A stretch of DNA of 64,000 nt from a virus: IMG/VR virus record IMGVR_UViG_3300033153_008341. The stretch is one strand, 5' to 3'. The position numbers were made by a program, and so were the translations under genes. This document shows, piece after piece, positions 3,038-51,000 of the stretch (its first letter is position 1; every line of letters begins with the position of its first letter). The notes under the pieces were generated by a model. It ran no database searches and was not told the DNA's origin. It saw nothing but the letters and a program-made list of their open reading frames with translations.

Positions 3038-3277
3038 ATGTTAAACAGTTATGATATGTCACCTGAATTAAGACTGGAAATAGACACAGCCAGGGCAAAT
3101 AAAACGCCTGAAAGATTGATTGACTTAATTTGGCTCCACTATTTTCCAAAAGGTTGGCATTCGAGTTGGCTTAGTTTGTACCACTTCAACCCTTTAGTGT
3201 TTATCTTTGTGTGGCTTGGAGATATTGAGGTTGATCGACTTGCTTTAACCACAAGGTATGCAAAGAGAAAACAATGA
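3038..3277 (+). CDS. small protein, paralog family A (FPKGWHSSWLSLYHFNPLVFIFVWLGD)
   Basis: Near-consensus family motif. Confidence 0.65.
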   Translation: MLNSYDMSPELRLEIDTARANKTPERLIDLIWLHYFPKGWHSSWLSLYHFNPLVFIFVWLGDIEVDRLALTTRYAKRKQ

Positions 3278-4239: not shown

Positions 4240-4425
4240 ATGACTAATATAAGAATAGATTCCAAAGAGTTTGTAGAGAGAATTGCAGAACTTGCAGAGA
4301 GCCGGTGTAACAGCAACTGGGTTATGTTGGCAGCCATAAGTTCTCTGTTACTTTGTTTTGTTTGGGCCTTGCCCAACCCAACTGGTATCTACGTACTAAG
4401 ACGCTTGATGGAAAAAAGTAAATGA
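4240..4425 (+). CDS. small protein, paralog family (ERIAELA...NWVMLAAISSLLLCFVWALP)
   Basis: Clear paralog of 4422..4622: SKEFVERIAELA / SPKFIERIEELA and LLCFVWALP / LLCFVWGLS. Confidence 0.65.
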   Translation: MTNIRIDSKEFVERIAELAESRCNSNWVMLAAISSLLLCFVWALPNPTGIYVLRRLMEKSK

Positions 4426-4622
4426 TGGACTTCATAAAATTAGATTCTCCCAAATTTATAGAACGTATAGAAGAACTTGCACTTAAGACACCCTATGATA
4501 GTGAGTGGGTTGATTTAGCTTGCTTAAGTCCAATGTTGTTGTGTTTTGTTTGGGGTTTATCCGATGTAGCCAGTTTCCGTGTCTTAGCACAAATAATGAA
4601 GAAAGCAAATAATGGAACTTAA
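4422..4622 (+). CDS. small protein, paralog family (EWVDLACLSPMLLCFVWGLSD)
   Basis: Tandem paralog of 4240..4425; its core also matches 1296..1481. Confidence 0.65.
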   Translation: MMDFIKLDSPKFIERIEELALKTPYDSEWVDLACLSPMLLCFVWGLSDVASFRVLAQIMKKANNGT

Positions 4623-4851
4623 ATTTACAGATTGCAGTAGTTCAAAGTTTAAGGTGTATCAGAGACAATGTGTAGGCAAGAAAAGACACAGGACAAGGTC
4701 TTTAGCTAAGCAAGCTGCTAAAAGATGGTCGGAAGAAGATGGCATAAAATATGTTGCTTATTTGTGTCAATGGTGTAATCATTACCATACAGGGCATAGA
4801 AAAACTTGGAAACGTAGAGTTCAAAGAAGATTGGAAACAAGGAATGAATGA
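4612..4851 (+). CDS. small basic Cys/His-rich protein (putative zinc-binding, 79 aa)
   Basis: C..C...CQWCNHYHTGH cluster; very basic (KKRHRTRSLAKQAAKRW). Confidence 0.4.
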   Translation: MELKFTDCSSSKFKVYQRQCVGKKRHRTRSLAKQAAKRWSEEDGIKYVAYLCQWCNHYHTGHRKTWKRRVQRRLETRNE

Positions 4852-5566
4852 CAAAAGTTTCAAATTCGTAGTTATAGCGATGTTGTGCATGATAGCAGCT
4901 ATTTTAGTAGTTGATACTATATATGGTATGATGTCGCCAATCTTCTGGCTTATGGCAATCGTAGCAAGTTTTGCAGGTTTACTTGCTGGGCGTAAAAACA
5001 AAGAGGAATCTAACCGTGAGTGACAAACTAAGGCAACAATTCCAAGATTTGTGTGAGCTGTCGCAGAAGTCAAGGGAATTAAGAGCTTTAATCAAGGTGT
5101 ATGATGACAGCTACGGAACTCAGTTTCTCAATGAGCTTCTCGGCCATTGGTTAAATACTGACCTTAGAGTCGTGAAGTTTCTTGAACTTGAAACTTTGAA
5201 ACTGTCAAAGAATACAGAGTTTATGGAACCACAGATTCAGGTAAGGCCGATCAAAGGTGCGAAGGCATAATATAGGACATCCAAATTTCCCTTCATATTT
5301 TGAGAAAGAATTTCTTCAGTATAGAGGGGATAAAAAATGTTGGGAAAAGGTGTACCGAAAGAACAATATGTACTTTGCTTTCGTTTGGGAAATGATAATA
5401 CATATTGATATATCAATCGGCTTAAAAATAGTACAAAGATCATTGAGGGTATTATGACCGCAATACAGAAAGGGGTAAATCATGCAGACCCACAAATAAT
5501 GGGTCTTACTATCTCCTATCATTCACAATTTACGAGATTCATACAAAACATAGTTGGTTTCATCAA

Positions 5567-5822
5567 GAGGGGTCGAAAGTTTCTAACACTAAATAAGAAA
5601 CTGAGCATATTTCGACCCCTCAAATTAAAAAGCTTAGGGCCGGATTATCTCAGCTCTGACCGATCCCTACTGATAAGGTTTCCCCTCCCCCAACCTTGTC
5701 ACATCGGTTTGGATGAATTTTCCGGCCTAACAAATTGGGGCTGAACATAACTACCGGAATTTGCGGGTATGGCTTAGTGAGTTTGTTTGGCGATAAAACA
5801 CTAAACCTGTTCAGCCCCCAAA
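5567..5822. ncRNA. candidate structured non-coding element with three consecutive long-stem hairpins
   Basis: Hairpin 1: perfect 12-bp inverted repeat GAGGGGTCGAAA (5567-5578) / TTTCGACCCCTC (5610-5621), with an inner GTTTCT/AGAAAC stem. Hairpin 2: TTAGGGCCGGA (5634-5644) / TCCGGCCTAA (5721-5730). Hairpin 3: TTGGGGCTGAAC (5735-5746) / GTTCAGCCCCCA (5809-5820). Local GC is higher than the flanks. The overlapping ORF 5454..5744 has low-complexity, non-protein-like translation in this part. Confidence 0.3.
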
Positions 5823-6050
5823 TATAAAGGGTTAAAGAGATGAAATGGAGAACTTTTAAGAAGGTATTCTATCTCGTCATAGCAATCAACCTTGTGGCTA
5901 TAGGGATAGAAACATACGGATACGTAAGGTACTTCCAATTCGATACACTCCCAACTTTGTGGTTGTATGGTGTTGCCTGTACAACTCTTGGCATAATAGG
6001 AATAACGACTTTATATTGCATGAACAAACCCTGAAGTAAAGGAACTAAGT

Positions 6051-7745: not shown

Positions 7746-7925
7746 ATGACAAACAAAAAAGGTAGGGATAGAAACCTTAGGTGGTTAAAGACTTTTCCAA
7801 AAGAGTGGAGTAGGGAATGGCTGGAACTTTATAAAATAAATTCTTTAACCTTTTTGTTTGTTTGGTTAGGTGAAAGTAAACTTGATATCATATATATTTC
7901 AAATAGACTCAAAAAATTGATATGA
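7746..7925 (+). CDS. small protein, paralog family A (59 aa, FPKEWSREWLELYKINSLTFLFVWLGE). Not in the supplied ORF track because it is below the length cutoff
   Basis: My own translation from the ATG at 7746 gives MTNKKGRDRNLRWLKTFPKEWSREWLELYKINSLTFLFVWLGESKLD... The stop overlaps the start of 7922..8110. Confidence 0.55.
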   Translation: MTNKKGRDRNLRWLKTFPKEWSREWLELYKINSLTFLFVWLGESKLDIIYISNRLKKLI

Positions 7926-8110
7926 AAGAGCCACTTATTCCAGATTTTATTGAGTTCCCAAAAGAATGGAGTTGGCAATGGTTAAAACTTTACAAAATGA
8001 ATCCAATACTTTTCCTGTTTGTTTGGGTGGCTGAAGTAGATGTATGGGAAGATCACCTTTTAGACAATTTAGTAAGGAAAGAAAAGGATGTACTTAATTT
8101 GTTACCGTAG
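7922..8110 (+). CDS. small protein, paralog family A (FPKEWSWQWLKLYKMNPILFLFVWVAE)
   Basis: Consensus family motif; tandem to 7746..7925. Confidence 0.65.
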   Translation: MKEPLIPDFIEFPKEWSWQWLKLYKMNPILFLFVWVAEVDVWEDHLLDNLVRKEKDVLNLLP

Positions 8111-14280: not shown

Positions 14281-14574
14281 TTGGCGAGGTTCTTAAGAAG
14301 AACTTTAGGAAATGTCTATTATTCATGTGAAATTGAGGCGGGCAAATTAACTATGTCCATGGTTATTCCATTGCCCGTCTCACATTCAAAAGAGGAAGAT
14401 ATGTCAGACAAAGGAAGTGGTTTTAAGTGGTTTATCCATGAAATGGGATTGGTAGTTCTTATAATTGTCATTTCACAATTATGCTTTTTCGGAGGCCTTA
14501 ACCTTCTGGGTGTAGTGTTGCTTGTTGTCGGTGGTGTCTTAGGGTTTTACAGATTTACCCATTGGGATTGGTAA
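14281..14574 (+). CDS. small membrane protein downstream of the SPFH gene (possible NfeD-like partner)
   Basis: Two C-terminal TM helices (LVVLIIVISQLCFFGG, LLGVVLLVVGGVLGF). SPFH genes are commonly paired with membrane partners. Confidence 0.4.
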   Translation: MARFLRRTLGNVYYSCEIEAGKLTMSMVIPLPVSHSKEEDMSDKGSGFKWFIHEMGLVVLIIVISQLCFFGGLNLLGVVLLVVGGVLGFYRFTHWDW

Positions 14575-15666: not shown

Positions 15667-16262
15667 AGGAAAAGGGAGTCGAGGGAAACTTCGGCTCCCT
15701 AACTTAAGAGGTAGTATGTGAATAGATCAGATTTAAGGCTCTTGGAAAATTGTATGATGTGTAACCTTTCCGATAAAGAAGCAACTATTTACGTCACATT
15801 CCCTAACGGACTATTTAAGGCTATTTACTTCGTTCCAATACGACTCCTTGCACTCTATCTGTTGATAGGAAAACACCCTATGGAAGCTTTCCATACTACT
15901 GTTTATGGTAGGATTGTTTGGATAGAAAATTCAACACCAAGACCTTCACGTCTTGATGACACTCTAACATCAAATGGAATAACTTATATCCCATAAGGGT
16001 TTCGCTATTATGCAATTACCAATTCAAAGTGAAATAAACATGGTAGCAAATTGGGTGGGAGATGTTAAAGGATGTGACGGAACAAATTTGACTGGATGGA
16101 TGACATGGTCAGGATTAGAAAAAGGATGGGTACCAAGTGCTTTGAAAGTTGGAAATTCTAACTTTATCATTTTCTTGTTAGTTTGTTTCTGTAGGTCCGG
16201 TGGTGATTGTAAAGGGTGGGGTTACACAAAACTTACGGGACTTTTCCAAAGAGTGACTAAAG

Positions 16263-16502: not shown

Positions 16503-17118
16503 ACAATCACCAAACTATTCGGTAATGCCAATCGGGTTTGATTGGAACGAATTTCGAAGGTTAACCAGCGAAAGAATAACCACGAACCGTATGCACCAGA
16601 CAGAGATATTACAACAAATTCATCCACACTTGGGTGTTATCGACTCTAAAACAAGAACTTTACGGGGGAATGTTGCAGCAAAAAAAACTCGGCAATTTAT
16701 ACAATCGTCAGAGACTTCGGAATTAGGCTTTCATGTAATCCATTACGTTGACTGGAGATTAGGTAGATGCTTTATACCAAATTCCGGTAAAGATTTTGTG
16801 TTCCCTTTGGATATCAATTTATTGAAAAGCCTAACATTGCGTAACATAAATCGAGTCCAAACAGCTATGTACGAAAGTTGGGCTGAATGTTTTACAGGGA
16901 TAGTTAAACTATTCACTATGGCAACTCCACGAGAAAAACAATTCAGTCTCGAAAGGTGGATAGAAAAATGTGCAGGAAATAAGGAAGAAGCGTTACACTT
17001 TGTCGTGCAGAAAACAATTCTAGAGTTTGATCCAGAGGATTTAGTGGCCACTCCCAGAAACATGAATTTAAGAGACAAGGGAGGTGTCCACAAAGTTCAA
17101 CCTAAGAAACCTTTTTGA
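16486..17118 (+). CDS. hypothetical protein (210 aa)
   Basis: Long ORF; no recognisable motif. Confidence 0.5.
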   Translation: MTKGLKQSPNYSVMPIGFDWNEFRRLTSERITTNRMHQTEILQQIHPHLGVIDSKTRTLRGNVAAKKTRQFIQSSETSELGFHVIHYVDWRLGRCFIPNSGKDFVFPLDINLLKSLTLRNINRVQTAMYESWAECFTGIVKLFTMATPREKQFSLERWIEKCAGNKEEALHFVVQKTILEFDPEDLVATPRNMNLRDKGGVHKVQPKKPF

Positions 17119-17381
17119 GGGGTTCACCACGTATTTCGCTCATAAATGGCTAAGTGTACGGGAGTGAAGTCCTTTCAACCTTTCACCTTCGCTTCCGTAT
17201 TACTTAGTCGCCAAATGGTCGCGTGAAACTTTCACTTGCTTCGTTTCGCGTGTGTCTTGCTTCGTTTCGCGTGTGTCATGTAAAACCGAATTCCGTGCGG
17301 TAAGAATGGGCAGAAAAATTTTGGAGCGAAAAATTACATAAATCGGAAAAGGCAAAGAAAAAACGGCCAGGAAAAAAAATT
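17119..17381. promoter_or_regulatory. 262-bp non-coding region with a 21-bp tandem repeat and a palindrome (candidate regulatory region or origin)
   Basis: Largest ORF-free gap in the plus-strand array. Contains the palindrome GTGAAAcTTTCAC (17223-17235), a perfect tandem duplication CTTGCTTCGTTTCGCGTGTGT x2 (17235-17276), recurring TCGCGTG and CCTTTCA words, and an A-rich tract before the next gene. Confidence 0.45.
17235..17276. repeat. perfect 21-bp direct tandem repeat (2 copies)
   Basis: cttgcttcgtttcgcgtgtgt repeated head-to-tail. Confidence 0.9.
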
Positions 17382-18227
17382 ATGAGAAGAATAACACTTA
17401 GACAACTTCAAGCAATTGGTAGGAAGTTTTGTAAAATAAACGCATCTCCCGCCAGATATTATAATAAAAAAGTAGGGGAATTGATTATAAAAAGAAACTG
17501 TAGTGCTGGGGTGAATTCAAGCTACTTTGTTAAGTACAAAGGGTATGAAGTATTTGTCAAGAACTGTGAAGACTATAGATACAGTGAGCAAACAGAGCTG
17601 AACTATTCTATATTAAATGAAATATTAGGCTTCTCAATTGTACCTAAAACAATCTTAGTCCCAGATACAAAAATAATAGTCCAAGAAAAAGTATCTGGTA
17701 GAACCTTTGCACGCTTAGAGTGGGTAACAGACCGCACAAGAAAACAAAGACAAAAAAGTATAAAGGACTTTCTTAAATCCCAAAACCTTTCAGAGTGGAT
17801 TTTCTTAGATGGGTTATTTTACAGTTCAGACAGACATTCCAACAACATGATGTATTCTTTTCGAAACAAGGTCTTTAGAGTTTGGTTAATAGACAATGGG
17901 TTTTCTTTACACACAAATAACAGATATTGGGATGATGGGGAACTCGAAAGTATAATAGATAACCATGACATAAATAACCCATTCAAAAATTGGAAATTTC
18001 ATCCTAAAACACAAAAGTCGATAACAAATTGGCTCTTATCCTTTGGTCCTAAGCCATTCACTGTTAAATGGAAAAGAGTTTTTTTAATTGAGATGACAAA
18101 CCTGTTAAATTTAAGAAAAGCTCCTACGGGATATAATCGATTTGAATCGTTCAAAGCAGGAATGAAAAGGATTCAACATATGTACAAATCAAAATTCACC
18201 TCAATACAAGGAGATAAATATAGGTGA
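17382..18227 (+). CDS. PI3K/PI4K-like atypical protein/lipid kinase domain protein
   Basis: Catalytic-loop-like YSSDRHSNNMMY (compare PI3K GDRHsdNIM, DRHxxN) followed by LIDNGFS (compare IDFGH metal-binding motif). Upstream G-rich loop, EVFVKNC (VAIK-like Lys) and ELNYSILNEILG (alpha-C Glu) are in kinase-typical order. Confidence 0.55.
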   Translation: MRRITLRQLQAIGRKFCKINASPARYYNKKVGELIIKRNCSAGVNSSYFVKYKGYEVFVKNCEDYRYSEQTELNYSILNEILGFSIVPKTILVPDTKIIVQEKVSGRTFARLEWVTDRTRKQRQKSIKDFLKSQNLSEWIFLDGLFYSSDRHSNNMMYSFRNKVFRVWLIDNGFSLHTNNRYWDDGELESIIDNHDINNPFKNWKFHPKTQKSITNWLLSFGPKPFTVKWKRVFLIEMTNLLNLRKAPTGYNRFESFKAGMKRIQHMYKSKFTSIQGDKYR

Positions 18228-33178: not shown

Positions 33179-33724
33179 ATGGAAACAAAAAAGCAACACC
33201 TGTTTGAGACAAAGGTTACACCACTCTTGCCTTACCTTCATCGTCTCGCAGTATCAATAACAAAACACAAAGAAAAGGCAGAGGACTTAGTTCAACGTAC
33301 CATGTTAAAAGCATTTCAAAATTGGGAAAGATTTGATTACCGTTCCGACGTTCATTGTCGAGCATGGGTAATAACAATTATGAACAATGAATTCCTAAAC
33401 ATGCTAAGGACAGAGAAGAACAGCTGGGGAAGTTTAGAAGAAGAAATATATAGGTACATGCCCACTACTACTCTTAAAGCTAACCCTGAACGAGCCTTGC
33501 TTATTAAAAATTTAAAAGAGGATATGGAAAAAGCCATAAATGAACTACCAAAAGAAAACAAGACAGTTATGACTTTACGATTGGTTGAAGAAAGATCGTA
33601 TAGTGAAATAGCAGAGATGACGGGCCTTCCTATGAACAAAGTGAAAAAACAAATCTATGCTGGAAGGAAACATGTACAAAAATGCTTGAAGGCTTATCGA
33701 AATAAGCTTAAGAGCAGCCAATGA
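33179..33724 (+). CDS. ECF-type sigma-70 family RNA polymerase sigma factor
   Basis: Region 2 DLVQRTMLKAFQNWERFD...RAWVITIMNNEFLNMLR. Region 4 HTH VMTLRLVEERSYSEIAEMTGLPMNKVKKQIYAGRKHV. Confidence 0.85.
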   Translation: METKKQHLFETKVTPLLPYLHRLAVSITKHKEKAEDLVQRTMLKAFQNWERFDYRSDVHCRAWVITIMNNEFLNMLRTEKNSWGSLEEEIYRYMPTTTLKANPERALLIKNLKEDMEKAINELPKENKTVMTLRLVEERSYSEIAEMTGLPMNKVKKQIYAGRKHVQKCLKAYRNKLKSSQ

Positions 33725-37044: not shown

Positions 37045-38007
37045 CTATACCTCACTTAATTTACTCCTTATTTCATTCAACATATCAGGGTTGGCTTGCA
37101 ATAAGTCAATGGCATTCTCCTTACCTTGACCTAAACGATTCGAATTATAACTATACCAAGTCCCCGACTTATCTATCACGCCCTGTTTTGTTCCCAACTC
37201 TAATATCTCTCCAGCTACACTTATACCCTTATTAAACTTGATAGCAAATTCTGCTTCTTGAAATGGGATGGCTGTTTTATTTTTCACAACCCTAGCGCGA
37301 ACTCTCACTCCTTTCGTTTGCTGGATTTCTTTTAGGGAAGATATTTTACGAACATCAACTCTTGTACTACAAAAATATCTAAATCCAGTCCCTCCGGCAG
37401 TGGTCTCTGGATTACCGAATACAACCCCTATCTTATAGGTAATCTGATTCACATAAATGATTGTAGTATCATGTCTAGCCGCAATAGGAATAACTCTCCT
37501 CAAATGTTGTCTGTTTAAACGGGCGGCTAAACCCATATGAGAGTCACCTGGGTCACCCTCCAATTCTGACTTAGGTAACAAAGCAGGTATAGAGTCAAGT
37601 ATGATTAAAGAAATCTCCCCTGTGTCTCCTAAGTGCTCAATCACATCGAAAGCTTGTTCAGCACAATCAGGTTGGGAAACGTATAACTGATCAATATCCA
37701 GACCCAAATTTTGTGCATAAGAGGGGTCAAAAGAATGTTCAGTGTCAACTAAAAGGACAGGCCCAAACTTCTGTGCTTCTACCATAGCATGAATACACAA
37801 GGTTGTTTTGCCAGAGGATTCGGGTCCTGAAATTTCGTGCAACAAACCCTTAGCAAAACCACCACCCAAGGCACGATCTAAACCAATTGAGCCACTAGAA
37901 AGTCTTTCTCTCCCTACAATAGCCCTGTCATGTAGCTGTATAACCACAAAATCTCCATGTGCTTTTTTGAGATCTTCTATTCCTTCTTCTAATTTACTCT
38001 TTTCCAT
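37045..38007 (-). CDS. recA: RecA recombinase
   Basis: Walker A GPESSGKTT, LIILDSIPAL, ARLNRQHLRR, YVNQI, and GNPETTAGGTGFRYFCSTRVDVRK (RecA loop 2 / L2 region). Confidence 0.95.
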   Translation of the reverse strand: MEKSKLEEGIEDLKKAHGDFVVIQLHDRAIVGRERLSSGSIGLDRALGGGFAKGLLHEISGPESSGKTTLCIHAMVEAQKFGPVLLVDTEHSFDPSYAQNLGLDIDQLYVSQPDCAEQAFDVIEHLGDTGEISLIILDSIPALLPKSELEGDPGDSHMGLAARLNRQHLRRVIPIAARHDTTIIYVNQITYKIGVVFGNPETTAGGTGFRYFCSTRVDVRKISSLKEIQQTKGVRVRARVVKNKTAIPFQEAEFAIKFNKGISVAGEILELGTKQGVIDKSGTWYSYNSNRLGQGKENAIDLLQANPDMLNEIRSKLSEV

Positions 38008-41000
38008 CTATCTTCTCTGATACCTTAAAGGTTGAAATTCTTCCATTACTACTAACTTCAATTACACTTTGTGCCACATCTTTCAACTCTGTAATATGGG
38101 TGATGAACAATACCCTGTTAAAAATTTCACCCAAACGTTTGAAGATGTCTTTCACAACCACCTTGTTTTCATCATCTAAAGCTCCCATCCCTTCATCAAC
38201 AATAAACAACTCAACCATACTACCCATACGTAAAGACAGGAGGTGAGCCATGGCCGCGCGGAGAGCCAAGGAAACCAAGACTAACTCCGAACCAGATGCC
38301 TCCAAAACGTCGCGTTTTCCTTTAGCATCTGATATGTAGATACTAATTTCATCACGACTACCACCACTTGACAAGGTCTTGTATGAGTCAATGGAGATAG
38401 AGATCATACCATTTGTAGTCTCCGCTAGCAGATCTTGAGCAAACTTCTCAATGATTGGTAGAGCCTTATCAACAATCCCAAAGATCACACCAGTCTTACT
38501 CACTAAGTCTGTGTACTTGTTAGTGTATAATTGATAATCCTCTATTCGTTCTCTCCGTTCTTTCTCCTTTTCTACTTGTTCGCTTAGTGTCCTGATATCA
38601 GTAATACCCTGCTCACAACGATACACCTGGGTCTCATAGTTCTTAGTCTTTTTGTTGCACTCAGTTAAATCCAAACGAGTATCGGCCAGTTCTTTTTTAT
38701 GCCTATCAATCGTGGCTATCCTGGTTGCCAATTCAGATCGACGAACAACCATAGAATCCCTACGGTGGAAGAGATCATCCTTTTGTAAGCCGTATGCCAC
38801 CAGTAACTCCATTATGTTTTCTAGTATATTAACACCGGAGGACAATTTTTGTTCCATTTCTTTCCATTTATTTTGTGTTTCTTCCTTGTGTAAACCAACC
38901 CACTCCATGTGTTTTTGCTTATCATAGGGAGAAGACTCCAGAAGGGACTCTAAATGGATAATGCGGTCCTTAACATCCGACACTTTTAGAAGATGTTCTT
39001 TGATCTGGTTCTCTATTATCTCATTAGTTTCTTCAAGCTTAATCCGTACCTTGCTTTTTTGCTCTTGGATTCTGGCATTCAAGGGACAGTCAGCCTTGGA
39101 ACAATCCAGTAATTTCGCGTCCTCAATCTGACCAATCAAAGAGCCTCTGGCGGTTTCCATGGACTTCAAAACGTCTTTGTGTTCCGCCTCCAGTTTTTCT
39201 ATATCACGCTTAAACGCACTGATTTGATTACGTCTTTCATTATTCCGAACGATCTCCTCAGAGGCCTCAGCTAATTTTTCTTGGAACTTCTGCTGTCTCT
39301 GTAGACCTCTGGTAATAACAGACCTATCAGCTAAAATTCCCTCCATTCGTTCTTGTTCAATCCTTTTAAGTTTGATCTTATATCTAAGGCCTTCAGTCTC
39401 TTCTCTTATCTTACCCAACTTTACATCAAGCTCTTTGTATTCTTCCCCCATCTCTTCATAGCTGTGAATATTTTTGGACAACTCTTCGATGTGGGTTAAC
39501 AAACGTCCCTGTACCACCTTCTCGTTATACAGGAGCCTGTTAAACTCTTCCAGTAATTCATGTGGCTTACTATCAACTAGGTTGTTTAACTGCTCCGTGT
39601 AGGCTGTTAACCTACCTTGGGACTGTTGTAACTTATCACGAATTTCCTTCTTCAACAAGTTAACCTCTGAAACTCTCTTATCCAACACATCTATCTGAAG
39701 ACAGTCCAAGACGATCTTTCTCCTGTCAGCGGGTTTCTTTTCCACCAAGAGATCAATCTTGTTTTGCGGGGAATAGACAGTAGACACAAACACATCGAAA
39801 GTACCTACTAATTTTTCTATGTTAACTTGAGTGGTCTTAATATCAGCCCCACTTATATCAATCCAATTTTCTTCAATCATTTTGGATAACTTAAGTATAG
39901 TCCCAGTCTTTGCTCGAATTCGTTCAATCTTGTACGGACTATTATGGGAAGTGAAATGTAACTCAACACTACATTGAGTTTCTTCGTTTCGAATTACAGA
40001 CTTGACATCTTTGTTTCTTAAAGTAATACCAAATAATGCCCATACAATAGACTCAACCAAAGAACTCTTACCGGTTTTGTTGGGGCCAAATACACCAACT
40101 ACGGGACTAAGTTCGCCAAACACAAGTGTTGGTGTCTCTGGACCAAAACACTTAAAGTTAGAAACCTTAAGACTATCAGGCTTAAAATTGATCCCTTTAT
40201 CTTCCTCCACCAAGTGTTTCTTTTTAAGCCTAGCCTCAACAACTTCTGCAACTTTCTTAACTCCTGGGTTAAACTTGTGATCATCAATATACTTAAAGAT
40301 TAAGTCCTTAATAGTATGCTGCTGGAAATTTTCAAATGAGATAGTACCGGATTGTTTGATCTTTTTATACTGTGGAACAATCTTGATGTCCTTAGCATTT
40401 TTGAATTGTCCACTAACCTTAACATGGTTTACTTCACCCGTTTGTTTCTGCCCTACTTTATACTTTACTCTGACACGAACATCAGTATAATCATACGTGT
40501 TATTTATACGACGTAGCAATTCCCTAGTTAACTCCGTTTTGTACGTACTAATATCCCCAGCATCAACCGTTTGATAAGGATACAACTGTGGTAGTTCCAT
40601 GAATTTAGGCTTCAAATCCTCCCACAGCACCCACCCAGTATTACTAGAGTCAGCAAAGTTCAACGGGGCTGGGCACCCAGGATATACCGCAGTACACTTC
40701 AGTTCTTCTCCCTCTTCAATGCCCTGATACTTGTGCAAATGCCCTGCCATAACAGCATCAAACTGTGACCAGAAAACCTTAGACATAATTACATCTTTAC
40801 CAACACCTATAGCTTCTTCTGATGCTAAGTAACTGTCACTGATGTTAAAACCCTCAAGAGTCCCATGGTAAATTAAGACATTCTTCTTGCTGGGATCTAA
40901 AGTAAAAGCATTAAGCACTTTTTTGTTAAGGTGTAGCACACTAGCATCAGCAGCACCAACATTAACTAGCTCTTTCTTGGATGGGTACCCAAACATATGG

Positions 41001-41353
41001 AACCTGTAATTATCAATATCAACGTACTCCCCAATTGTGCCATAAACCTTCAGCAACGAGTCATTGGTAAAGACAGCAGAAAGGGAATCAACCTTGATCT
41101 CAGACATACTGGCGTCATGGTTCCCAGGAATTATGATTATGGAATACCCGTCAAGAGTTTCCTTGAAAAATTTACGTGTTAATTGCACCTGCTTCGGACT
41201 AAGTTTGTCGCGATGAACAAACATGTCACCGGCAAACACAATCAAGTCGGGATTTTGTTCCCTAACTTGTTTTCCTAACTGTCCAAGTATTTTTTCAAAC
41301 TCTTGTATCCGTGCGTCACTTATATGGATGTCAGCAAAATGTGCTACTTTCAT
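37994..41353 (-). CDS. fused SbcD-SbcC (Mre11-Rad50-like) nuclease-ATPase, single 1119-aa polypeptide
   Basis: N-terminal calcineurin-like phosphoesterase motifs DIHISD, AGDMFVH, GNHD. At about residue 410 the Rad50 Walker A FGPNKTGKSS. Long coiled-coil middle. C-terminal ABC signature LSSGGSRDEI and Walker B LFIVDEGMGALD. Confidence 0.85.
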   Translation of the reverse strand: MKVAHFADIHISDARIQEFEKILGQLGKQVREQNPDLIVFAGDMFVHRDKLSPKQVQLTRKFFKETLDGYSIIIIPGNHDASMSEIKVDSLSAVFTNDSLLKVYGTIGEYVDIDNYRFHMFGYPSKKELVNVGAADASVLHLNKKVLNAFTLDPSKKNVLIYHGTLEGFNISDSYLASEEAIGVGKDVIMSKVFWSQFDAVMAGHLHKYQGIEEGEELKCTAVYPGCPAPLNFADSSNTGWVLWEDLKPKFMELPQLYPYQTVDAGDISTYKTELTRELLRRINNTYDYTDVRVRVKYKVGQKQTGEVNHVKVSGQFKNAKDIKIVPQYKKIKQSGTISFENFQQHTIKDLIFKYIDDHKFNPGVKKVAEVVEARLKKKHLVEEDKGINFKPDSLKVSNFKCFGPETPTLVFGELSPVVGVFGPNKTGKSSLVESIVWALFGITLRNKDVKSVIRNEETQCSVELHFTSHNSPYKIERIRAKTGTILKLSKMIEENWIDISGADIKTTQVNIEKLVGTFDVFVSTVYSPQNKIDLLVEKKPADRRKIVLDCLQIDVLDKRVSEVNLLKKEIRDKLQQSQGRLTAYTEQLNNLVDSKPHELLEEFNRLLYNEKVVQGRLLTHIEELSKNIHSYEEMGEEYKELDVKLGKIREETEGLRYKIKLKRIEQERMEGILADRSVITRGLQRQQKFQEKLAEASEEIVRNNERRNQISAFKRDIEKLEAEHKDVLKSMETARGSLIGQIEDAKLLDCSKADCPLNARIQEQKSKVRIKLEETNEIIENQIKEHLLKVSDVKDRIIHLESLLESSPYDKQKHMEWVGLHKEETQNKWKEMEQKLSSGVNILENIMELLVAYGLQKDDLFHRRDSMVVRRSELATRIATIDRHKKELADTRLDLTECNKKTKNYETQVYRCEQGITDIRTLSEQVEKEKERRERIEDYQLYTNKYTDLVSKTGVIFGIVDKALPIIEKFAQDLLAETTNGMISISIDSYKTLSSGGSRDEISIYISDAKGKRDVLEASGSELVLVSLALRAAMAHLLSLRMGSMVELFIVDEGMGALDDENKVVVKDIFKRLGEIFNRVLFITHITELKDVAQSVIEVSSNGRISTFKVSEKIDGKE

Positions 41354-41880
41354 GAAGTGATTCCTAGGTAATTGATTTTCACATCAGTGGCAGTCAACGG
41401 CTTCATTCCACCTGATATATACATTGTGTCTGTTGTGTCTGTAGTGTCTGTATAGCCGATGGATGTTGTATAGGTTGGATATTGTTGGTTCTTTATATGA
41501 TTGGTAATCCAACCAAGCAACGGATTAACTTTTTGTGGTTGAATCAAACCCAAAAACATAATACCTAAGCTATTTTTATGCTTTAGTATCTTTGTCCACT
41601 CAACACAATTACCTTTAATCCAAACCCCAAACATATCATGTCTTATCAATTCTTGTTCTTCTGTGGGCATATTAAAACTTGGGTGATTGTTAGGCCAAGT
41701 TGCAAATGCTCCCCACCAAGTACCTACTGGATATGTAGCACCCACCACCGGACTCTTTGTTATAAGCTCTTTCCATGTGCCTTGTGTCATATAGGATTCA
41801 CCGTAAGGAAGTACAGTGTCCATTTGGGCCCACTTCACCGTTTGCCAATTTTTCCTGTATTCATTAGTAGACATCGTCAA
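41350..41880 (-). CDS. hypothetical protein (176 aa), Trp-rich
   Basis: ORF with an ATGA overlap to the downstream gene; no motif. Confidence 0.5.
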   Translation of the reverse strand: MTMSTNEYRKNWQTVKWAQMDTVLPYGESYMTQGTWKELITKSPVVGATYPVGTWWGAFATWPNNHPSFNMPTEEQELIRHDMFGVWIKGNCVEWTKILKHKNSLGIMFLGLIQPQKVNPLLGWITNHIKNQQYPTYTTSIGYTDTTDTTDTMYISGGMKPLTATDVKINYLGITS

Positions 41881-42505
41881 TTATCCTTCTTTTCAAGCAA
41901 GTTTTTGGGGTAAAGTACCAATCGTCCTTTGCCTTTTTCCTAAACTCATCAATTGTAATAGTTGTATTTGTCAATAAACTCTTCACTAGTCGCTCATAAT
42001 GTTCTGTAGTTACTCTTACATCTAGATTGTGCTGTTGCAATGACATAAACTCAGTTTCCCAATTAGGATAATGTAACATCAATGAACCATACTTAGACAT
42101 CTTTACATAGTCCCCCGCTAACGCAAGCAAACCAGCCCCAGAGTATGCGGCACCTACAATATCAACATGAATATCATTGATAGCCCTCTCGAATTCTGTA
42201 ATTATACATTGAGTGTCAAGTACATTACCACCTATGCTATTAATTTTCACATAGATAGGTTTATCCCTGACTTCATCCAACCCCACAATATGATCACTTA
42301 TCTCTTTTGATAGTTGTTCGTCAATAAACCCATAAACTATGATTGTTCTGGTGATTAAATTTATACGATTTGCACTCAACCTACCTTCAATATTAACAAG
42401 ATCAACAGATTCGGTGTCCCTATCATCCATTTCAATTTCCTCAGATCTTAGTTGTTGTTTTTTTCTCATGTGGAATACCCTCGACAAAACGTCCCACGTT
42501 GGCAT
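41864..42505 (-). CDS. ClpP-family serine protease
   Basis: Active-site Ser context GAAYSGAGLLALAGD (ClpP GxAAS-M-G) and His context SLMLHYP (ClpP iMIHQP). 213 aa. Confidence 0.7.
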   Translation of the reverse strand: MPTWDVLSRVFHMRKKQQLRSEEIEMDDRDTESVDLVNIEGRLSANRINLITRTIIVYGFIDEQLSKEISDHIVGLDEVRDKPIYVKINSIGGNVLDTQCIITEFERAINDIHVDIVGAAYSGAGLLALAGDYVKMSKYGSLMLHYPNWETEFMSLQQHNLDVRVTTEHYERLVKSLLTNTTITIDEFRKKAKDDWYFTPKTCLKRRIIDDVY

Positions 42506-45928: not shown

Positions 45929-46005
45929 TGGTGGACGTGGGGGGAATCGAACCCCCGTCGAGCAATTCAGCCGAAACCAAATTACCCCGAAACCCTGACA
46001 CGCCC
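45929..46005 (-). tRNA. tRNA-like element with non-canonical internal arms (degenerate tRNA or attP-type tRNA segment)
   Basis: Minus-strand sequence GGGCGTGTCAGGGTTTCGGGGTAATTTGGTTTCGGCTGAATTGCTCGACGGGGGTTCGATTCCCCCCACGTCCACCA (77 nt). Perfect T-arm GGGGG-TTCGATT-CCCCC. 7-bp acceptor stem GGGCGTG/CACGTCC (one G-U). Discriminator A and encoded CCA. D and anticodon arms do not fold canonically; the best fold is a 4-bp stem with a 9-nt loop. Confidence 0.45.
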
Positions 46006-46008
46006 ATA

Positions 46009-46557
46009 TTAATCAAAATCATAGACATAATCATCCATAATAGTTTTAACCTCAACCCCGTGCTTACGTTTGAAATCTCTTCGACCTTTTCTGGCTAATG
46101 CCCTGTCAATAAACCAAACACCATTCAAATGATCGTACTCGTGCAAAGCTACGGCCGCTGATTGTGAGTTAAAAGTTCTCTTAATCTCCTTACCATCCTC
46201 ACCCAGCATCAACATAGTAACAGAAGAGGGTCTGAGAACATAATAAAAAACCCCAGGAATGGATAGGCAACCCTCATATGAGGACTGTACTGGACCTTGA
46301 AAAATGCTTTCAATTATGGGGTTTATAACCACCGTCGGCCCGTCTTTTTCATCCATTGCTGGGTACTGGTTGAACACAAATATACGTGAAGGAATACCTA
46401 TCTGTATAGCTGACAGACCTGCTCCATACGGCCCCAAGTCTCCTAGCGTGTCTTTCAAGTCCTGAACAATACTTTTAACTCCTGCGTCAATCTTATACAC
46501 AGGCCCTGAAACTTCTCGGAGAATTTCGTCTTTGATTGTACAAATTTGCCTAACCAT
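46009..46557 (-). CDS. def: peptide deformylase
   Basis: Motifs GAGLSAIQIG (GxGxAAxQ), EGCLSIPG (EGCLS) and HEYDHLNG (HExxH). Confidence 0.9.
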   Translation of the reverse strand: MVRQICTIKDEILREVSGPVYKIDAGVKSIVQDLKDTLGDLGPYGAGLSAIQIGIPSRIFVFNQYPAMDEKDGPTVVINPIIESIFQGPVQSSYEGCLSIPGVFYYVLRPSSVTMLMLGEDGKEIKRTFNSQSAAVALHEYDHLNGVWFIDRALARKGRRDFKRKHGVEVKTIMDDYVYDFD

Positions 46558-47143
46558 TTTTCTGCTTCTCCAAGAACTCCTTGAACTTAAGAACTAGATC
46601 ATGGTCTTTATAAGGTGTAGTATGGATAGGAAACCTACCATCACCTGTGTAAGTCAAAGCTTTACGAATTGACGTTGCTACCGGAACATCTACTGATTCC
46701 CCATCTTTGATCTCTGCTGTTCCTTCCCATGTAGAAGCGGAGCTTCCGTCAGTCCATTTACCTGTGGTAATACTAGCCTTTGCCAACAACCTGTTACCAA
46801 CTTGGATAACTTCAGTAGTAATACTAAAGTCGGGGTGTTTATCAGCAAAGATAGCTATGTGTCCATCAATTCCTAAATATGGGACTATGGACTTATAATA
46901 TACCGACCACTTTCCTTTGTTATCCCATTGACCTATTTTATCCCAACCAAATTCTTTCTGGAGGGCTTTCATAGTATCAGGGTCTGCTTGTTCCCACCAG
47001 ACCTTTGTCGTTTGTTGAACTGTCTGCAAATAACCATGGTACTTTTCGTCGAGCTCAGAATAGGCTACAGCGAATCGCCGTAATTCCTCTTTTTGTAGCC
47101 CCGAAACGGCCTCCTTGATTTTTGCTATTTTCCAATCTTCCAT
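46550..47143 (-). CDS. hypothetical protein (197 aa), first gene of the minus-strand replication block
   Basis: ORF overlapping pdf by 8 nt; no motif. Confidence 0.55.
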   Translation of the reverse strand: MEDWKIAKIKEAVSGLQKEELRRFAVAYSELDEKYHGYLQTVQQTTKVWWEQADPDTMKALQKEFGWDKIGQWDNKGKWSVYYKSIVPYLGIDGHIAIFADKHPDFSITTEVIQVGNRLLAKASITTGKWTDGSSASTWEGTAEIKDGESVDVPVATSIRKALTYTGDGRFPIHTTPYKDHDLVLKFKEFLEKQKNG

Positions 47144-47194
47144 GCTAACTCCTTGTTACGTGCTGAGGTACGTATATATAACGCATTTCAGCCA

Positions 47195-47223
47195 AAAAAG
47201 TTCTTAAAAAATCAGAACTTTTT
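47195..47223. promoter_or_regulatory. 10-bp perfect inverted repeat in the divergent promoter region (candidate operator)
   Basis: AAAAAGTTCT-taaaaaatc-AGAACTTTTT lies between the start of minus-strand gene 46550..47143 and the plus-strand recombinase start at 47275. Confidence 0.4.
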
Positions 47224-47274
47224 CACTTTTTTGGTGTTTATGATAATAGTAGTTATCAAACCAGAGGAGTAGAG

Positions 47275-48090
47275 ATGTACGACGCATTCAAAAAACACCT
47301 AGAAGGCCTGGATTCTAGCCCTAACACCATACGAAACTACACCACAGACCTAAAAATGGCTCAGAGACACGGGATAATTACCGAAAATCTGGCCTCAATG
47401 GACCTCAAAAAGCTGGTCAATTTAGACGTAAAGCCTAGAACCAAGCAGAGAATGAGGGCCGCAATACGGAGATACGCCAGGTTCTGTGCAGGTACTGGTA
47501 TTATCAGTCAGGTGCCAGCCGAACTGACCAACTTGGACCTGCCAAAAATAACCAGGAACATCCCTAGAGTCACCCGTTCAGGGAAGGCTAAGGAGTTGCT
47601 GGCTAAAATTGATGACGCGGAATTGTCCCTAATCATTCACCTCTTGGCGACTACGGGATGCCGAATATCATCCCTTGCGGACCTCGAAATTGAGGATTTT
47701 GGTACTAAATCTGTCTTGTTCAGGACCTCCAAAGGGGGTAAACCGTATGTGTCGATCCTTACCCCCGACACCAAAGAAGCATTCCTAAAGCACATCAAAC
47801 ATAGGGCTTCTGGATACGTTTTTTTAACTAATGCTGATCGCAAAGCTACCCCTGATAGCCTACGTGGTAAGCTCTACGCTGGACTTGGTGAAGATTATGT
47901 AAATCCCCACAGTTTTAGACACGGAGTAGCAACAGAGCTTATTGAAAATGGTGTAGATCTAACAGTTGTAAAAACCTTCATGAACCACACCAGCGTTACA
48001 GTTACAGAGACCTATGTCCACTTAGCAGATGAATACATAGTGAAGAAACTCAAAGGTAAACACCCAATGTTAAGTGATTCTGTTGATTAG
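47275..48090 (+). CDS. tyrosine site-specific recombinase (integrase / XerD-like)
   Basis: Catalytic residues in order: TGCRISS (Arg), HSFRHGVATEL (His-x-x-Arg), TETYVHL (Tyr nucleophile). 271 aa with no large N-terminal arm-binding domain. Confidence 0.85.
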   Translation: MYDAFKKHLEGLDSSPNTIRNYTTDLKMAQRHGIITENLASMDLKKLVNLDVKPRTKQRMRAAIRRYARFCAGTGIISQVPAELTNLDLPKITRNIPRVTRSGKAKELLAKIDDAELSLIIHLLATTGCRISSLADLEIEDFGTKSVLFRTSKGGKPYVSILTPDTKEAFLKHIKHRASGYVFLTNADRKATPDSLRGKLYAGLGEDYVNPHSFRHGVATELIENGVDLTVVKTFMNHTSVTVTETYVHLADEYIVKKLKGKHPMLSDSVD

Positions 48091-51000
48091 ATCAATAAGT
48101 TGAATGGTAGGGCTGGTTTTACTCAAAAATACAGCCTTACCACCCAATGAATAGGTTTCTTCAGCAATACCTAAACCAGCAGGGTCTTTATACTGGTCAG
48201 CTGGGATGTAAAAAACTATATCGTCAGAATGTGTATTCATCATTCGTGGTCTTATCTGGAATGCCCCATACCTATAGTTTGAACCTGGATATACATTGTT
48301 ATTACTCAGAATCAAGTCAAAGTTATTACCAGAGATAATTGACCCAGCACTAGTAAATGTTTTGTAATATGTATAGTTATTATTAACAAGCCTGTACCCT
48401 AACGTAAATTGATCCTGCTGTGAGTATCCTACCCCTACCCAAGTCACCCCTCGAAAAGAGTTCAACTCAGAACGAGTAAACTCAGCGTCAACACCATATC
48501 CACCATATGTTGATATTCCGTATGTTGCTACAGTTACTGCTCCCGTTGTTGCATAACAAACACCATAAATAGTAGCCTCTGCATTTGCTGAATCACAATA
48601 TGCAAGTAGCATAGTACCAGAAGGACTCACATCAAAATCTAACGCTGTTAAATTACCTGAAACATGAGCCAACTTGTCATATGATTCCATCACTGACCCA
48701 TATATATTCAACTTGAATATTGTAAAGTGACTAGCTAAAGCACTTTGTTTCGACATATAATAATATCTGTTGTCGGAGTATCGCAACGCCCCAACGTAAC
48801 CATCAGCATCAGTGCTTAGGAGAGTAGGATTACCCCAGTATGTATGCAGAGCATCGCCGGTGAGATCTCTATTGGTTGAAATATCAGAGAAAGAAGAGTA
48901 AGCAAAACTAGAATCCGTTGAAGCAAACAGGATCATTAAAGTAGTGTCGGTGTCGGTGGCTGGATATGGCCTTGCTATTAACGGGTAACCCCCATTATAG
49001 TTCTCATCAAACGTACTATCTAAAGGTCGCGATTCACTGGATGTTCGATTAAAAGTGTCAGAAATCCAACCAACATGAAGATAGGTAGCAAAGCTAGGGT
49101 TTTGGTGAAGCTGGACAAAATAATAACCAATGCCTTTATCATCAATTGTCCCCATAGTTAAGTTGATTGCCCACTGTGTACCTGTTCCCAATAATCCAGG
49201 GGTAGCTTCTATTCGTAGTTCTTTAGTTACTAGATAGATATTCTTATCTCTAAATTGTAGCTCATTTGTTGTAATAGTGTCAGTTTCAATCTCATTGGCA
49301 GTGATAGCCTCAGCGGCAACGTTCTGTGTAATAACCGAATCAGCCTCAATCATATGGCCACGAATTAAATTACCCTGTAAATAATCTGCTGTTACAGACT
49401 TGGTATCATAGTAAGCTCTAGCTGGGGCCTCATCCTTTTCTTCAAATTGAACACCATCTATATGAAGTGTTGCACTAGTAGTTAAAGAATCATATCCAAG
49501 TGTTATTGATATATTAGTAATAGATGGGGTTGCAATATAAAATGTTCCGGTGACTCTTTCCCAAGTTGTTCCAATATCAGAGTAGATAGAGGATTTAAAT
49601 TTTACTAGTTGTGTTTGGTTATCGCGTGCAAGAATGTTTATTTTCAAATCTTCTAAATCATTCACACATCTAGCATAACAACTAAAAACATATTTTCTTG
49701 TGTTTCCAACATATGGTAATACATGTATATCATTTTGTGCTATATAGCTATGACTAGCCTCTGGTGGTATTTCTACATAGTGTGTACCATGATAGGCATC
49801 CCCACTCTTGACATTATATCCATTATTATATTCTACTTTAGCCAATGGTGTTGAGCCATATGTTTGTGGTTTCCAACCATGTGCCCATACAGTGCCACTA
49901 CTAGTTCGATAAACTCTTTCAAAACTAGAGTTGTCTAACATATTTCGAAATTTATCTTTATAATCCGCAACAGGGAAAAGGTATTTATAGTCAGAGATAG
50001 TTGAAAAATTACCTGCAACATCTTCAATTTGGGTGTAATAAATGTAGTCTTTCCAAGGATCAACCTCTTTGTCCACATAAAAGTTAACACCTGCATCTAC
50101 TGAAGTGATGGTAGCAAAGGTAGTTCCTTTAAACGCCACTGTTTCTTCAAGATAAAAAGCGTCACCAGCAAGACCCACCACAGTTTTATAATGCACCTGT
50201 AAACGCATAAGTGTATTAGCACTAGAGTGAATATATGAAAAATCTTGAACTCTCCAATCTACTGATGTATCAACACTTTTATTCCACACAGATGCAACTA
50301 CAGACCCATCACCTGCTTCAATCAATTTTAACCCATAAAAAGGGTTGAGATTAGAAGCATCCCTATATCTAGAAAATGCTGTTATCGTTTCTCCATCGCG
50401 CACTTTAAAGGTATTGCTATTTGCTATATATACAGCTGTCACACCATCTGCTGGGATAATGATAAAACAATGGTCGCCATGAAAAGGAATTGAATCAATT
50501 ACAGCCTTGGCGGCGATATTATCAGCGGTGGCAATGATCCAATGTTCAGCATCAGTATTTGCTTTCATCTCTTGGAATATGGGGTTGTTATTCAATACCT
50601 CAGTTTGAGATCTAAATATATGGGTTTTATACAACCCTGATAAACCATCTGCAATCTTACTATTATCCCACACTACTCTGTTGGCAGCTTGAAGACCTTC
50701 AGACCTTTCTCTATAATTGAAATACTTAAATTTTTGGCTATCCCACGTAGGCTGTTGTATATCTATCGGAACATGTAGAGTTTCATCTGAACCACTAAAA
50801 TTCTCCTCGATATCTTTTACTCGAAACTTTGCCCACCAATTAGAACCAGTTGAAAGTGTTAATTGACCATTAAATTCCGTCCATGCAGACCAATCACCAG
50901 AGACCTTGGTTGAGTAAAAATATGAAGCTATCGCATTTGTACCTTCATACATCAACGAAGCGGTGATAGCTTGATTAAACCAACCATTAGCATTAGGCTC

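Follow-up and report, generated by a model that had tools for sequence, protein, structure and literature searches.

A triple hairpin in the early gene block of an uncultured tailed phage is most likely an intercistronic mRNA structure

Introduction

The long early polycistronic mRNA of phage T7 carries hairpins between its genes, the RNase III sites R0.3 to R1.3, in which a long stem contains an asymmetric internal loop and is not followed by a U-tract; like intercistronic stabilizers, these hairpins cap the ends of the processed mRNAs. In lambdoid phages, the Rho-dependent terminators tR1 and tL1 close the immediate-early units, lie between early gene blocks, and consist of untranslated C-rich, G-poor RNA followed by pause hairpins. 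Structured non-coding RNA is also found within the early transcripts of temperate phages and prophages, downstream of the early promoter: DicF is a small RNA processed from a prophage operon, and the put RNAs of phage HK022 act in cis. The PeSL cassettes of T4-type phages comprise a repeated, sequence-conserved motif of ~100 bp with a strong sigma-70 promoter and stem-loops that terminate transcription, and they occupy intergenic positions where small orphan early genes abound (PMC2839356). The Shine-Dalgarno sequence and start codon of the next gene lie at the 3' edge of the PeSL motif, and recombination of the motif can delete cassettes.

Here we describe an element at 5567-5822 of a 64,000-nucleotide window, the whole stretch of viral DNA that we analyzed (IMG/VR record IMGVR_UViG_3300033153_008341). 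It consists of three adjacent hairpins, H1 to H3, and sits between early genes. With the T7 sites it shares the position in a presumed long early polycistronic mRNA, the long stem with an asymmetric internal loop (in H1), and the missing U-tract, and by analogy it may likewise cap processed mRNA ends. It differs from them in having no similar sequence, in comprising three tandem units with no genes between, and in that cleavage is here only proposed; T7 sites are also smaller than H2 and H3, which span ~90 nt, one of them as a three-way junction. As in PeSL cassettes, stem-loops occupy an intergenic position among small orphan early genes, and the next start codon follows H3 at 21 nt; cassette deletion of the PeSL kind would explain stacked hairpins. 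Unlike PeSL motifs, however, the hairpins described here share no sequence and adjoin no promoter, and a role in termination is only hypothetical. The likeness to tR1 and tL1 lies in the C-rich, G-poor untranslated RNA with hairpins behind it, and this phage, as lambdoid phages do, carries an integrase gene, but here a large share of the C-rich RNA is base-paired, and neither a nut-like element nor an antiterminator was recognized. DicF and the put RNAs differ from the element in size and fold; the element has no Rfam match, and a discrete RNA or a part in antitermination would be hypothetical.

Results

The phage and its early gene block

The window makes up almost the whole of a 66.6-kb JGI metagenome contig. 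It belongs to a tailed phage and encodes a 1855-aa tape-measure protein, ribonucleotide reductase, ThyX, a tyrosine integrase, a DnaB-type helicase, a primase, a RecA/UvsX-like recombinase, and a fused SbcCD-like nuclease. Between 1 and 34 kb lie ~100 small, tightly packed genes, all on the positive strand and each with an AAAGGA-type Shine-Dalgarno site. The element is located within this early block, between early genes, and read-through transcription across it is therefore expected.

Other genes recognized in the window were those for an ECF-type sigma factor (33179-33724), a ClpP-like protease (41864-42505), and a peptide deformylase (46009-46557). The SbcCD-like nuclease is a single-chain SbcD-SbcC fusion of 1119 aa (37994-41353), and no DNA polymerase gene was recognized within the 64-kb stretch. 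Proteins of 1802 and 1408 aa, encoded at 48070-53478 and 53481-57707 (-), adjoin the tape-measure gene; neither matched Pfam or PHROG, and a tblastn search of 50,697 phage records with the 1408-aa protein was empty as well. The small early genes include a family of paralogues at 3038-3277, 4240-4425, 4422-4622, 7746-7925, and 7922-8110, partly arranged as tandem pairs and sharing the motif W..LY..NP..F(L/I)FVW(L/V).

Structure of the element

5567-5621, positive strand: hairpin H1; the lower stem is perfect over 12 bp and the upper stem has 6 bp, with a bulge of 8 nt on the 3' side and a loop of 11 nt
5622-5633, positive strand: A-rich single-stranded spacer AAATTAAAAAGC between H1 and H2
5634-5730, positive strand: hairpin H2, a 32-bp rod with internal loops and 4 G-U pairs; outer stem of ~10 bp
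5735-5822, positive strand: hairpin H3, in which a perfect stem of 11 bp closes a three-way junction

The initial annotation of this DNA had reported three back-to-back hairpins with nearly perfect 10- to 12-bp stems. Inspection of the sequence together with a repeat finder confirmed the three hairpins, with outer stems of 12, ~10, and 11 bp. The description of the stems was correct for H1, whose arms (5567-5578 and 5610-5621) are complementary at 12/12 positions, and for H3, whose arms (5737-5747 and 5808-5818, GGGGCTGAACA/TGTTCAGCCCC) pair at 11/11 positions; the 12-mer originally given for H3 has one mismatch, and the outer stem of H2, TTAGG(G)CCGGA/TCCGGCCTAA, requires one bulged G to pair. 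The outer stems of the element are formed by perfect Watson-Crick pairing, without G-U pairs. The GTTTCT/AGAAAC stem that had been placed inside H1 is present, giving this hairpin 18 bp in total with no G-U pairs. Folded singly, H1 had a z-score of -6.6 and H3 one of -4.4.

In the minimum-energy fold of H2, 5637-5644 pairs with 5721-5728, and the 32-bp rod then extends to the apical loop UCCCCUCCCCC. This C-rich loop of 11 nt (5681-5691; also given as TCCCCTCCCCC) is carried by a 10-bp apical stem, 5671-5680/5692-5701. The fold of H2 was specific to the positive strand (z = -4.7, versus -0.8 for the negative strand). The spacers between the arms of the hairpins measure 31-75 nt, and the end of the H3 stem lies 21 nt before ATG 5840. 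The minimum-energy and centroid structures both contained all three hairpins, and no competing fold was found. The pentamer CAAAT is located at or just past each stem, at 5621-5625 (starting on the last base of the H1 stem), 5731-5735, and 5819-5823; this motif was defined post hoc, after inspection of the sequence, and has a background frequency of 2.4 per kb in the early region.

RNA folding, which had been proposed as a check, revealed a strong structure: the positive strand between 5555 and 5835 folded with -94.5 kcal/mol (z = -5.3), and 0 of 200 shuffled sequences were equally stable. When 280-nt windows on both strands were compared after correction for GC content, the one on the element ranked first of 1820, with a narrow lead over the next (z of -3.5 versus -3.2). 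The 64-kb stretch contained 5 perfect stems of at least 11 bp as opposed to 2.2 expected; of 300 dinucleotide shuffles, 4 contained two such stems within 300 nt of each other and 3 contained two that were GC-rich. The structure of 5567-5822 is beyond chance. At a scale of 100 nt, several coding regions of the 64-kb stretch folded as well as the element did. The region immediately upstream, 5271-5566, had no significant structure (z = -1.05).

The GC content of the element was raised, as previously noted: 0.48-0.49, compared with 0.32-0.38 in the AT-richer flanks. Its GC skew was reversed relative to that of the surrounding genes. The strand evidence inside the element itself was mixed. H2 favored the positive strand, H1 and H3 showed no strand preference, and the H3 interior folded better on the negative strand. 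When the element was folded as DNA, the two strands were alike, with z-scores of -5.3 and -5.2.

The initial annotation had also stated that no T-run follows the hairpins on either strand and that they are not simple intrinsic terminators. The first statement is true for the positive strand, where the tails AAATTAAAAAG, CAAATTGG, and CCAAATATAAAG contain no U-tract, and false for the negative strand, where H2 is followed by GCTTTTTAATTT (the spacer 5622-5633, read on this strand, is the T-run behind H2) and H3 by AATTTGTT. The second holds on the transcribed strand; a terminator scan of 5500-5900 was also empty. On the negative strand, H2 and H3 have U-rich tails, yet the 60-90 nt between their arms are not canonical for an intrinsic terminator. 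A classical attenuator, one of the roles initially suggested, is unlikely, there being neither a U-tract nor a competing fold.

Hairpins at other early gene junctions

Five further hairpins were found in the early block:

557-624, positive strand: H0, GGAGCCGAAA/TTTCGGCTCC, then AAAAATAAGG; 18 nt before ATG 643; -27.4 kcal/mol on the positive strand versus -23.2 kcal/mol on the negative
1767-1801, positive strand: 13-bp junction hairpin, then AAAATTA; 33 nt before ATG 1835; -21.3 versus -16.5 kcal/mol
14337-14382, positive strand: junction hairpin after stop 14251; stem end 20 nt before ATG 14400; -19.2 versus -11.2 kcal/mol
15673-15700, positive strand: junction hairpin of 12 bp with a tetraloop, 7 nt past stop 15666; 17 nt before start 15718; -21.1 versus -12.0 kcal/mol
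17148-17209, positive strand: 22-bp hairpin, 30 nt past stop 17118, then GCCAAATGG; -28.5 versus -17.3 kcal/mol

Each of the five was 4-11 kcal/mol more stable on the positive strand, owing to its 2-4 G-U pairs. Thus, as a class, these sister hairpins are structures of positive-strand RNA rather than DNA palindromes. The distance from the hairpin end to the next start codon was 17-20 nt in four of the five by our summary, the individual values being 18, 20, and 17 nt and, for the hairpin at 1767, 33 nt; those at 17-20 nt sit just ahead of the Shine-Dalgarno site of the next gene. None of the five has a U-tract, and A-rich tails related to CAAAT follow the hairpins at 557, 1767, and 17148. The hairpins share no sequence, and the element belonged to no direct-repeat family of the 64-kb stretch.

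The hairpin at 17148-17209 is contained in the largest gene-free gap of the early block (17118-17382, 263 nt). Behind it, at 17235-17276, are two perfect tandem copies of CTTGCTTCGTTTCGCGTGTGT. This gap may be a regulatory region ahead of the gene at 17382.

Coding status of the element and its neighborhood

5357-5414, positive strand: imperfect, operator-like palindrome preceding the next feature
5405-5432, positive strand: sigma-70-like match TTGATA-16-AATAGT (9/12), a match to the consensus only
5454-5744, positive strand: open reading frame (ORF) of 96 codons spanning H1 and H2, with H3 outside; judged spurious
5476-5555, positive strand: C-rich, G-poor stretch with a C/G ratio of 2.25, within 5271-5566
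5616-5695, positive strand: second C-rich stretch, with a C/G ratio of 2.42 and 29 C in 80 nt, largely paired within H2
5840-6034, positive strand: first downstream gene candidate, 64 aa, with the hairpin, ribosome-binding site, and ATG arranged as in other early genes
5988-6017, positive strand: promoter-like site (10/12) inside gene 5840-6034, ahead of gene 6051

The ORF at 5454-5744 had been described as not resembling a protein. The ORF exists, but its codon score, -14.5 bits in total, was lower than any other among the 42 ORFs scored, and each of the three frames was negative across 5590-5830. Its product had no Pfam match and was missing from the gene calls of the source pipeline; an HMMER scan of 1.84 billion representative proteins returned three multi-stretch repeat-type matches and not the product itself, none of them a real homologue. 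Since codon scores are negative, gene calls are absent, and the only protein matches are of the repeat type, the stretch 5567-5822 is non-coding. It forms part of ~570 nt (5271-5839) without convincing coding.

None of 12 candidate products within 5024-6050, the 96-codon ORF included, was present in the source gene calls, compared with 10 of 15 small genes tested outside that interval. The exact product of 5840-6034, which by eye looks like a two-helix membrane protein, was missing from these calls. Within the early block, where the median C/G ratio is 0.70, the two C-rich stretches rank among the top 1% of windows. In a promoter scan, promoter-like sites were no commoner than expected from shuffled sequence.

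Search for relatives and known RNA families

An Rfam scan, the second check that had been proposed, assigned the element to no known family. With Rfam 15, nothing in the element reached the gathering level, and no credible family appeared at E values of up to 10; the best sub-threshold match, to a microRNA model (17.9 bits versus a threshold of 58, E = 0.97), reflects hairpin shape only. The scan of 4850-5600 returned nothing. ARAGORN called 0 tRNA or tmRNA genes in the 64 kb, and the element had no match to Rfam clan CL00001.

Used as exact patterns, the stems of H1, the apical hairpin of H2, and the stems of H3 had 0 matches in IMG/VR, and locus searches of the same collection anchored on the neighboring 145-aa and 330-aa proteins found nothing. 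By blastn, the region had no match even at E = 1 among 50,697 phage records (INPHARED) and 72,556 plasmids (PLSDB). A scan of JGI metagenomes for the H3 stems, in a collection that does not include the source contig, yielded 48 loci, all of them unrelated palindromes with different interiors. The neighboring proteins are singletons: in a set of 5.8 billion protein clusters the 145-aa protein matched itself only, and the best non-self match of the YspA-like neighbor was 46% identical and lay on a non-syntenic contig. No cultured relative came to light when the helicase, recombinase, and 1408-aa protein served as tblastn queries. None of the collections searched (IMG/VR, JGI metagenomes, INPHARED, PLSDB, and protein clusters) yielded a relative of the phage.

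The metagenome scan also brought up a repeated palindromic element, unrelated to the phage, on at least 8 contigs. Its outer inverted repeats, ATAGATAAATGC/GCATTTATCTAT, enclose GGGGCTGAACCCCG, a TCAAAG/GTCAAAA array, and GGGGTTCAGCCCC. The loci (L005, L008, L012, L018, L019, L023, L029, and L036) come mostly from metagenome Ga0268262, and L019 comes from Ga0182488.

Discussion

A probable mRNA structure at a gene junction

The element is most likely one more intercistronic mRNA structure in the early operon of this phage, unusual only in being tripled and in occurring in a lineage without relatives. Among the roles that had initially been listed (a structured RNA, an origin or packaging signal, or an attenuator), an RNA-level role is the best supported; an origin or packaging signal found no support. 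Our tentative preference is for a non-coding part of the positive-strand early polycistronic transcript, a tripled form of the junction hairpin of this phage that would act in processing, stability, or insulation. The RNA level is favored by indirect evidence: the sister junction hairpins are specific to the positive strand and stand at a set distance from start codons. The CAAAT at the end of each stem (5621, 5731, and 5819) also argues for an mRNA-level role, as does the succession of lower stem, asymmetric internal loop, and upper stem in H1, which we take to be the layout of T7 RNase III sites. T7-type RNase III sites comprise about two turns of double-stranded RNA, often with an internal loop, and lie between cistrons. 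The shapes of H1 (12 + 6 bp with an 8-nt asymmetric loop) and H2 (32 bp with internal loops) would be compatible with such a site, which shape by itself does not define.

If the element is transcribed as expected, its long Watson-Crick stems would be targets or barriers made of double-stranded RNA. RNase III might cut inside these stems, or RNase E might act on the A/U-rich segment behind each of them, CAAAU(U/A), and such cleavage would split the long early transcript into segments. The hairpins could then cap the ends so formed, protecting them from exonucleases, and leave the following gene's ribosome-binding site clear of upstream folding and upstream ribosomes. H3 would be the regular hairpin, placed directly ahead of the ribosome-binding site of gene 5840, and H1 and H2 would be extra units with no gene behind them, either orphaned by cassette loss or released as stable small hairpin RNAs. 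What the sequence shows is the structure, its non-coding nature, the missing terminator tails, and the class of sister hairpins; from these we infer transcription through the element, its cleavage, and an effect on stability.

Several observations count against this mRNA-level reading. No homologue was found that could lend comparative support; strand evidence within the element is mixed, and its DNA folds equally on both strands. The perfect Watson-Crick outer stems would suit DNA palindromes or young repeats equally well, a simple processing site does not need three units without an intervening gene, several coding regions fold as well at 100 nt, and the CAAAT motif was defined post hoc.

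At present the element is a candidate, another intergenic region with unvalidated structure, and has no bearing on a long-standing question. If the mRNA-level reading is true, an uncultured phage punctuates its long early transcript with hairpins placed at a set distance upstream of start codons, most elaborately in the triple hairpin. This would be a simple and testable case of transcript architecture, in a lineage for which neither cultured nor sequenced relatives are known, and the hairpins might serve as insulator parts.

Alternative explanations

A somewhat unlikely alternative is a Rho-dependent termination or attenuation zone that bounds two early transcription units. C-rich untranslated RNA would load Rho and the hairpins would cause pausing, with the genes downstream reached by antitermination or from a new promoter; lambda tR1 and tL1 would be the closest analogy. 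The rut region of such a terminator is ~80 nt of poorly structured, untranslated RNA that is rich in C and poor in G. The ~570 nt without convincing coding (5271-5839) suit such a zone, and so does the high C/G ratio of the positive strand at 5476-5555 and 5616-5695, but much of the latter stretch is paired inside H2, which should hinder the loading of Rho. The part without significant structure, 5271-5566, is followed by hairpins within the next 150 nt, as a zone of this kind would have it; H3, however, is placed before a ribosome-binding site in the same manner as hairpins inside clearly continuous operons. The promoter-like site at 5988-6017, ahead of gene 6051, could restart transcription, but matches of this quality are no commoner than in shuffled sequence, and no antiterminator protein was identified.

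We consider it unlikely that the element is a free-standing non-coding RNA of ~260-380 nt, expressed from its own promoter near 5405-5432 and acting in trans, either by pairing of the H2 loop UCCCCUCCCCC with G-rich or Shine-Dalgarno-like sequences or as a decoy. The region does contain the strongest 280-nt fold of the 64 kb, and a C-rich 11-nt apical loop on a 10-bp stem within a hairpin specific to the positive strand would suit this role; however, no target stood out when each loop was scanned for duplexes with either strand of the 64 kb. The promoter-like site upstream is accompanied by an operator-like palindrome, but the match is weak (9/12) and no better than chance. Such an RNA would also have no Rfam family and no terminator at its end. 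A bolder form of this idea, a new three-domain phage non-coding RNA with a regulated promoter of its own that acts in trans as an anti-Shine-Dalgarno mimic, sponge, or anti-defense decoy, is improbable; as a sponge, its UCCCCUCCCCC loop would capture G-rich host or phage RNAs or RNA-binding proteins, and the RNA would belong to no described family. The chance of H2 acting in trans through a C-rich seed gives the element some added promise.

The hairpins might instead be a remnant without function, stacked at one junction after small gene cassettes were deleted or generated as palindromes by template switching during replication. This is rather unlikely. The early region is indeed a mosaic of orphan small genes and paralogues in which hairpins are normally single at gene junctions, but three strong hairpins have all been kept here in a very tightly packed genome. 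The perfect outer stems resemble those of young repeats, and the genes on either side have the opposite GC skew; the extended inner helices of H2, which contain G-U pairs, nevertheless exceed a simple inverted repeat, and a CAAAT tail is common to all three hairpins.

That the element acts as DNA is quite improbable; read as extruded or single-stranded hairpins, it would be an origin or single-strand initiation signal, a signal for packaging or for an injection stop, or a site of recombination. The DNA folds are equally strong on both strands (z of -5.3 and -5.2), the outer stems are perfectly palindromic, and three consecutive hairpins resemble G4-type primase-dependent initiation signals. 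However, spacers of 31-75 nt between arms disfavor cruciform extrusion, and the sister hairpins are specific to the RNA strand. No tandem repeats or iterons were found near the element. The nearest DnaA-box-like matches are at 1.1 kb and 9.6 kb, and no DnaA boxes were seen within several kb. The helicase, primase, and recombinase genes are located at 34-45 kb and the integrase at 47.3 kb, which places the replication and integration genes 30-40 kb from the element. No T5-like genes that would accompany a T5-like injection-stop signal were found, and the phage carries an integrase.

A protein of 96 aa truly encoded at 5454-5744, with the hairpins as incidental mRNA structure, is very improbable: its ATG has a GAGGG Shine-Dalgarno-like sequence 6 nt upstream, but the ORF has the worst codon usage of the 42 tested, no Pfam match, no source gene call, and only three repeat-type matches among 1.84 billion proteins, and H3 falls outside it anyway.

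A number of other identities were considered and rejected. The element is not a PeSL cassette, as no conserved repeat family includes it and no promoter-like site adjoins H1-H3. As an attC site, H3 would depart from the RYYYAAC...GTTRRRY consensus at position 4 on each side (GCTGAAC/GTTCAGC), H1 and H2 have no boxes at the inner ends of their stems, and no integron integrase is encoded nearby. The sequence also led us to reject a MITE with a target-site duplication, as well as hammerhead and other ribozyme cores. No reverse transcriptase gene was found nearby, as a retron would have. N4-type hairpin promoters, which have stems of 5-7 bp and loops of 3 nt, were rejected on the sizes of stem and loop.

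Additional observations

At 47190-47234, an A-tract, the stem AAGTTCT/AGAACTT, and a T-tract form a structure that could terminate transcription in both directions. It is situated between the divergent genes 46550-47143 (negative strand) and 47275-48090 (positive strand), the latter encoding the integrase, and is the only canonical terminator noticed in the 64 kb, by eye in the fold survey rather than by a terminator scan.

A 77-nt miniature tmRNA was found at 45929-46005 on the negative strand. Its acceptor stem of 7 bp includes G3:U70, and a T-arm and an encoded CCA are present, but the mRNA-like and pseudoknot middle is wholly absent. It scored 53 bits against the Rfam tmRNA threshold of 47, and ARAGORN called nothing there. 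It adjoins the peptide deformylase gene, and the tyrosine integrase gene is 1.3 kb away. The 27 nt at its 3' end had an exact match in a single full tmRNA of the GTDB genomes searched, that of an uncultured gammaproteobacterial metagenome-assembled genome (CAZXPY010000003.1; locus L051, 1616-1969). Compared by eye, the identity of the two reaches 31 nt, and the 5' GGGCGTG is common to both. The miniature tmRNA is either an ssrA-derived attP core, in which case it would point to the host, or a phage RNA consisting of the tRNA-like domain only, which, if phage-encoded as such, could interfere with trans-translation.
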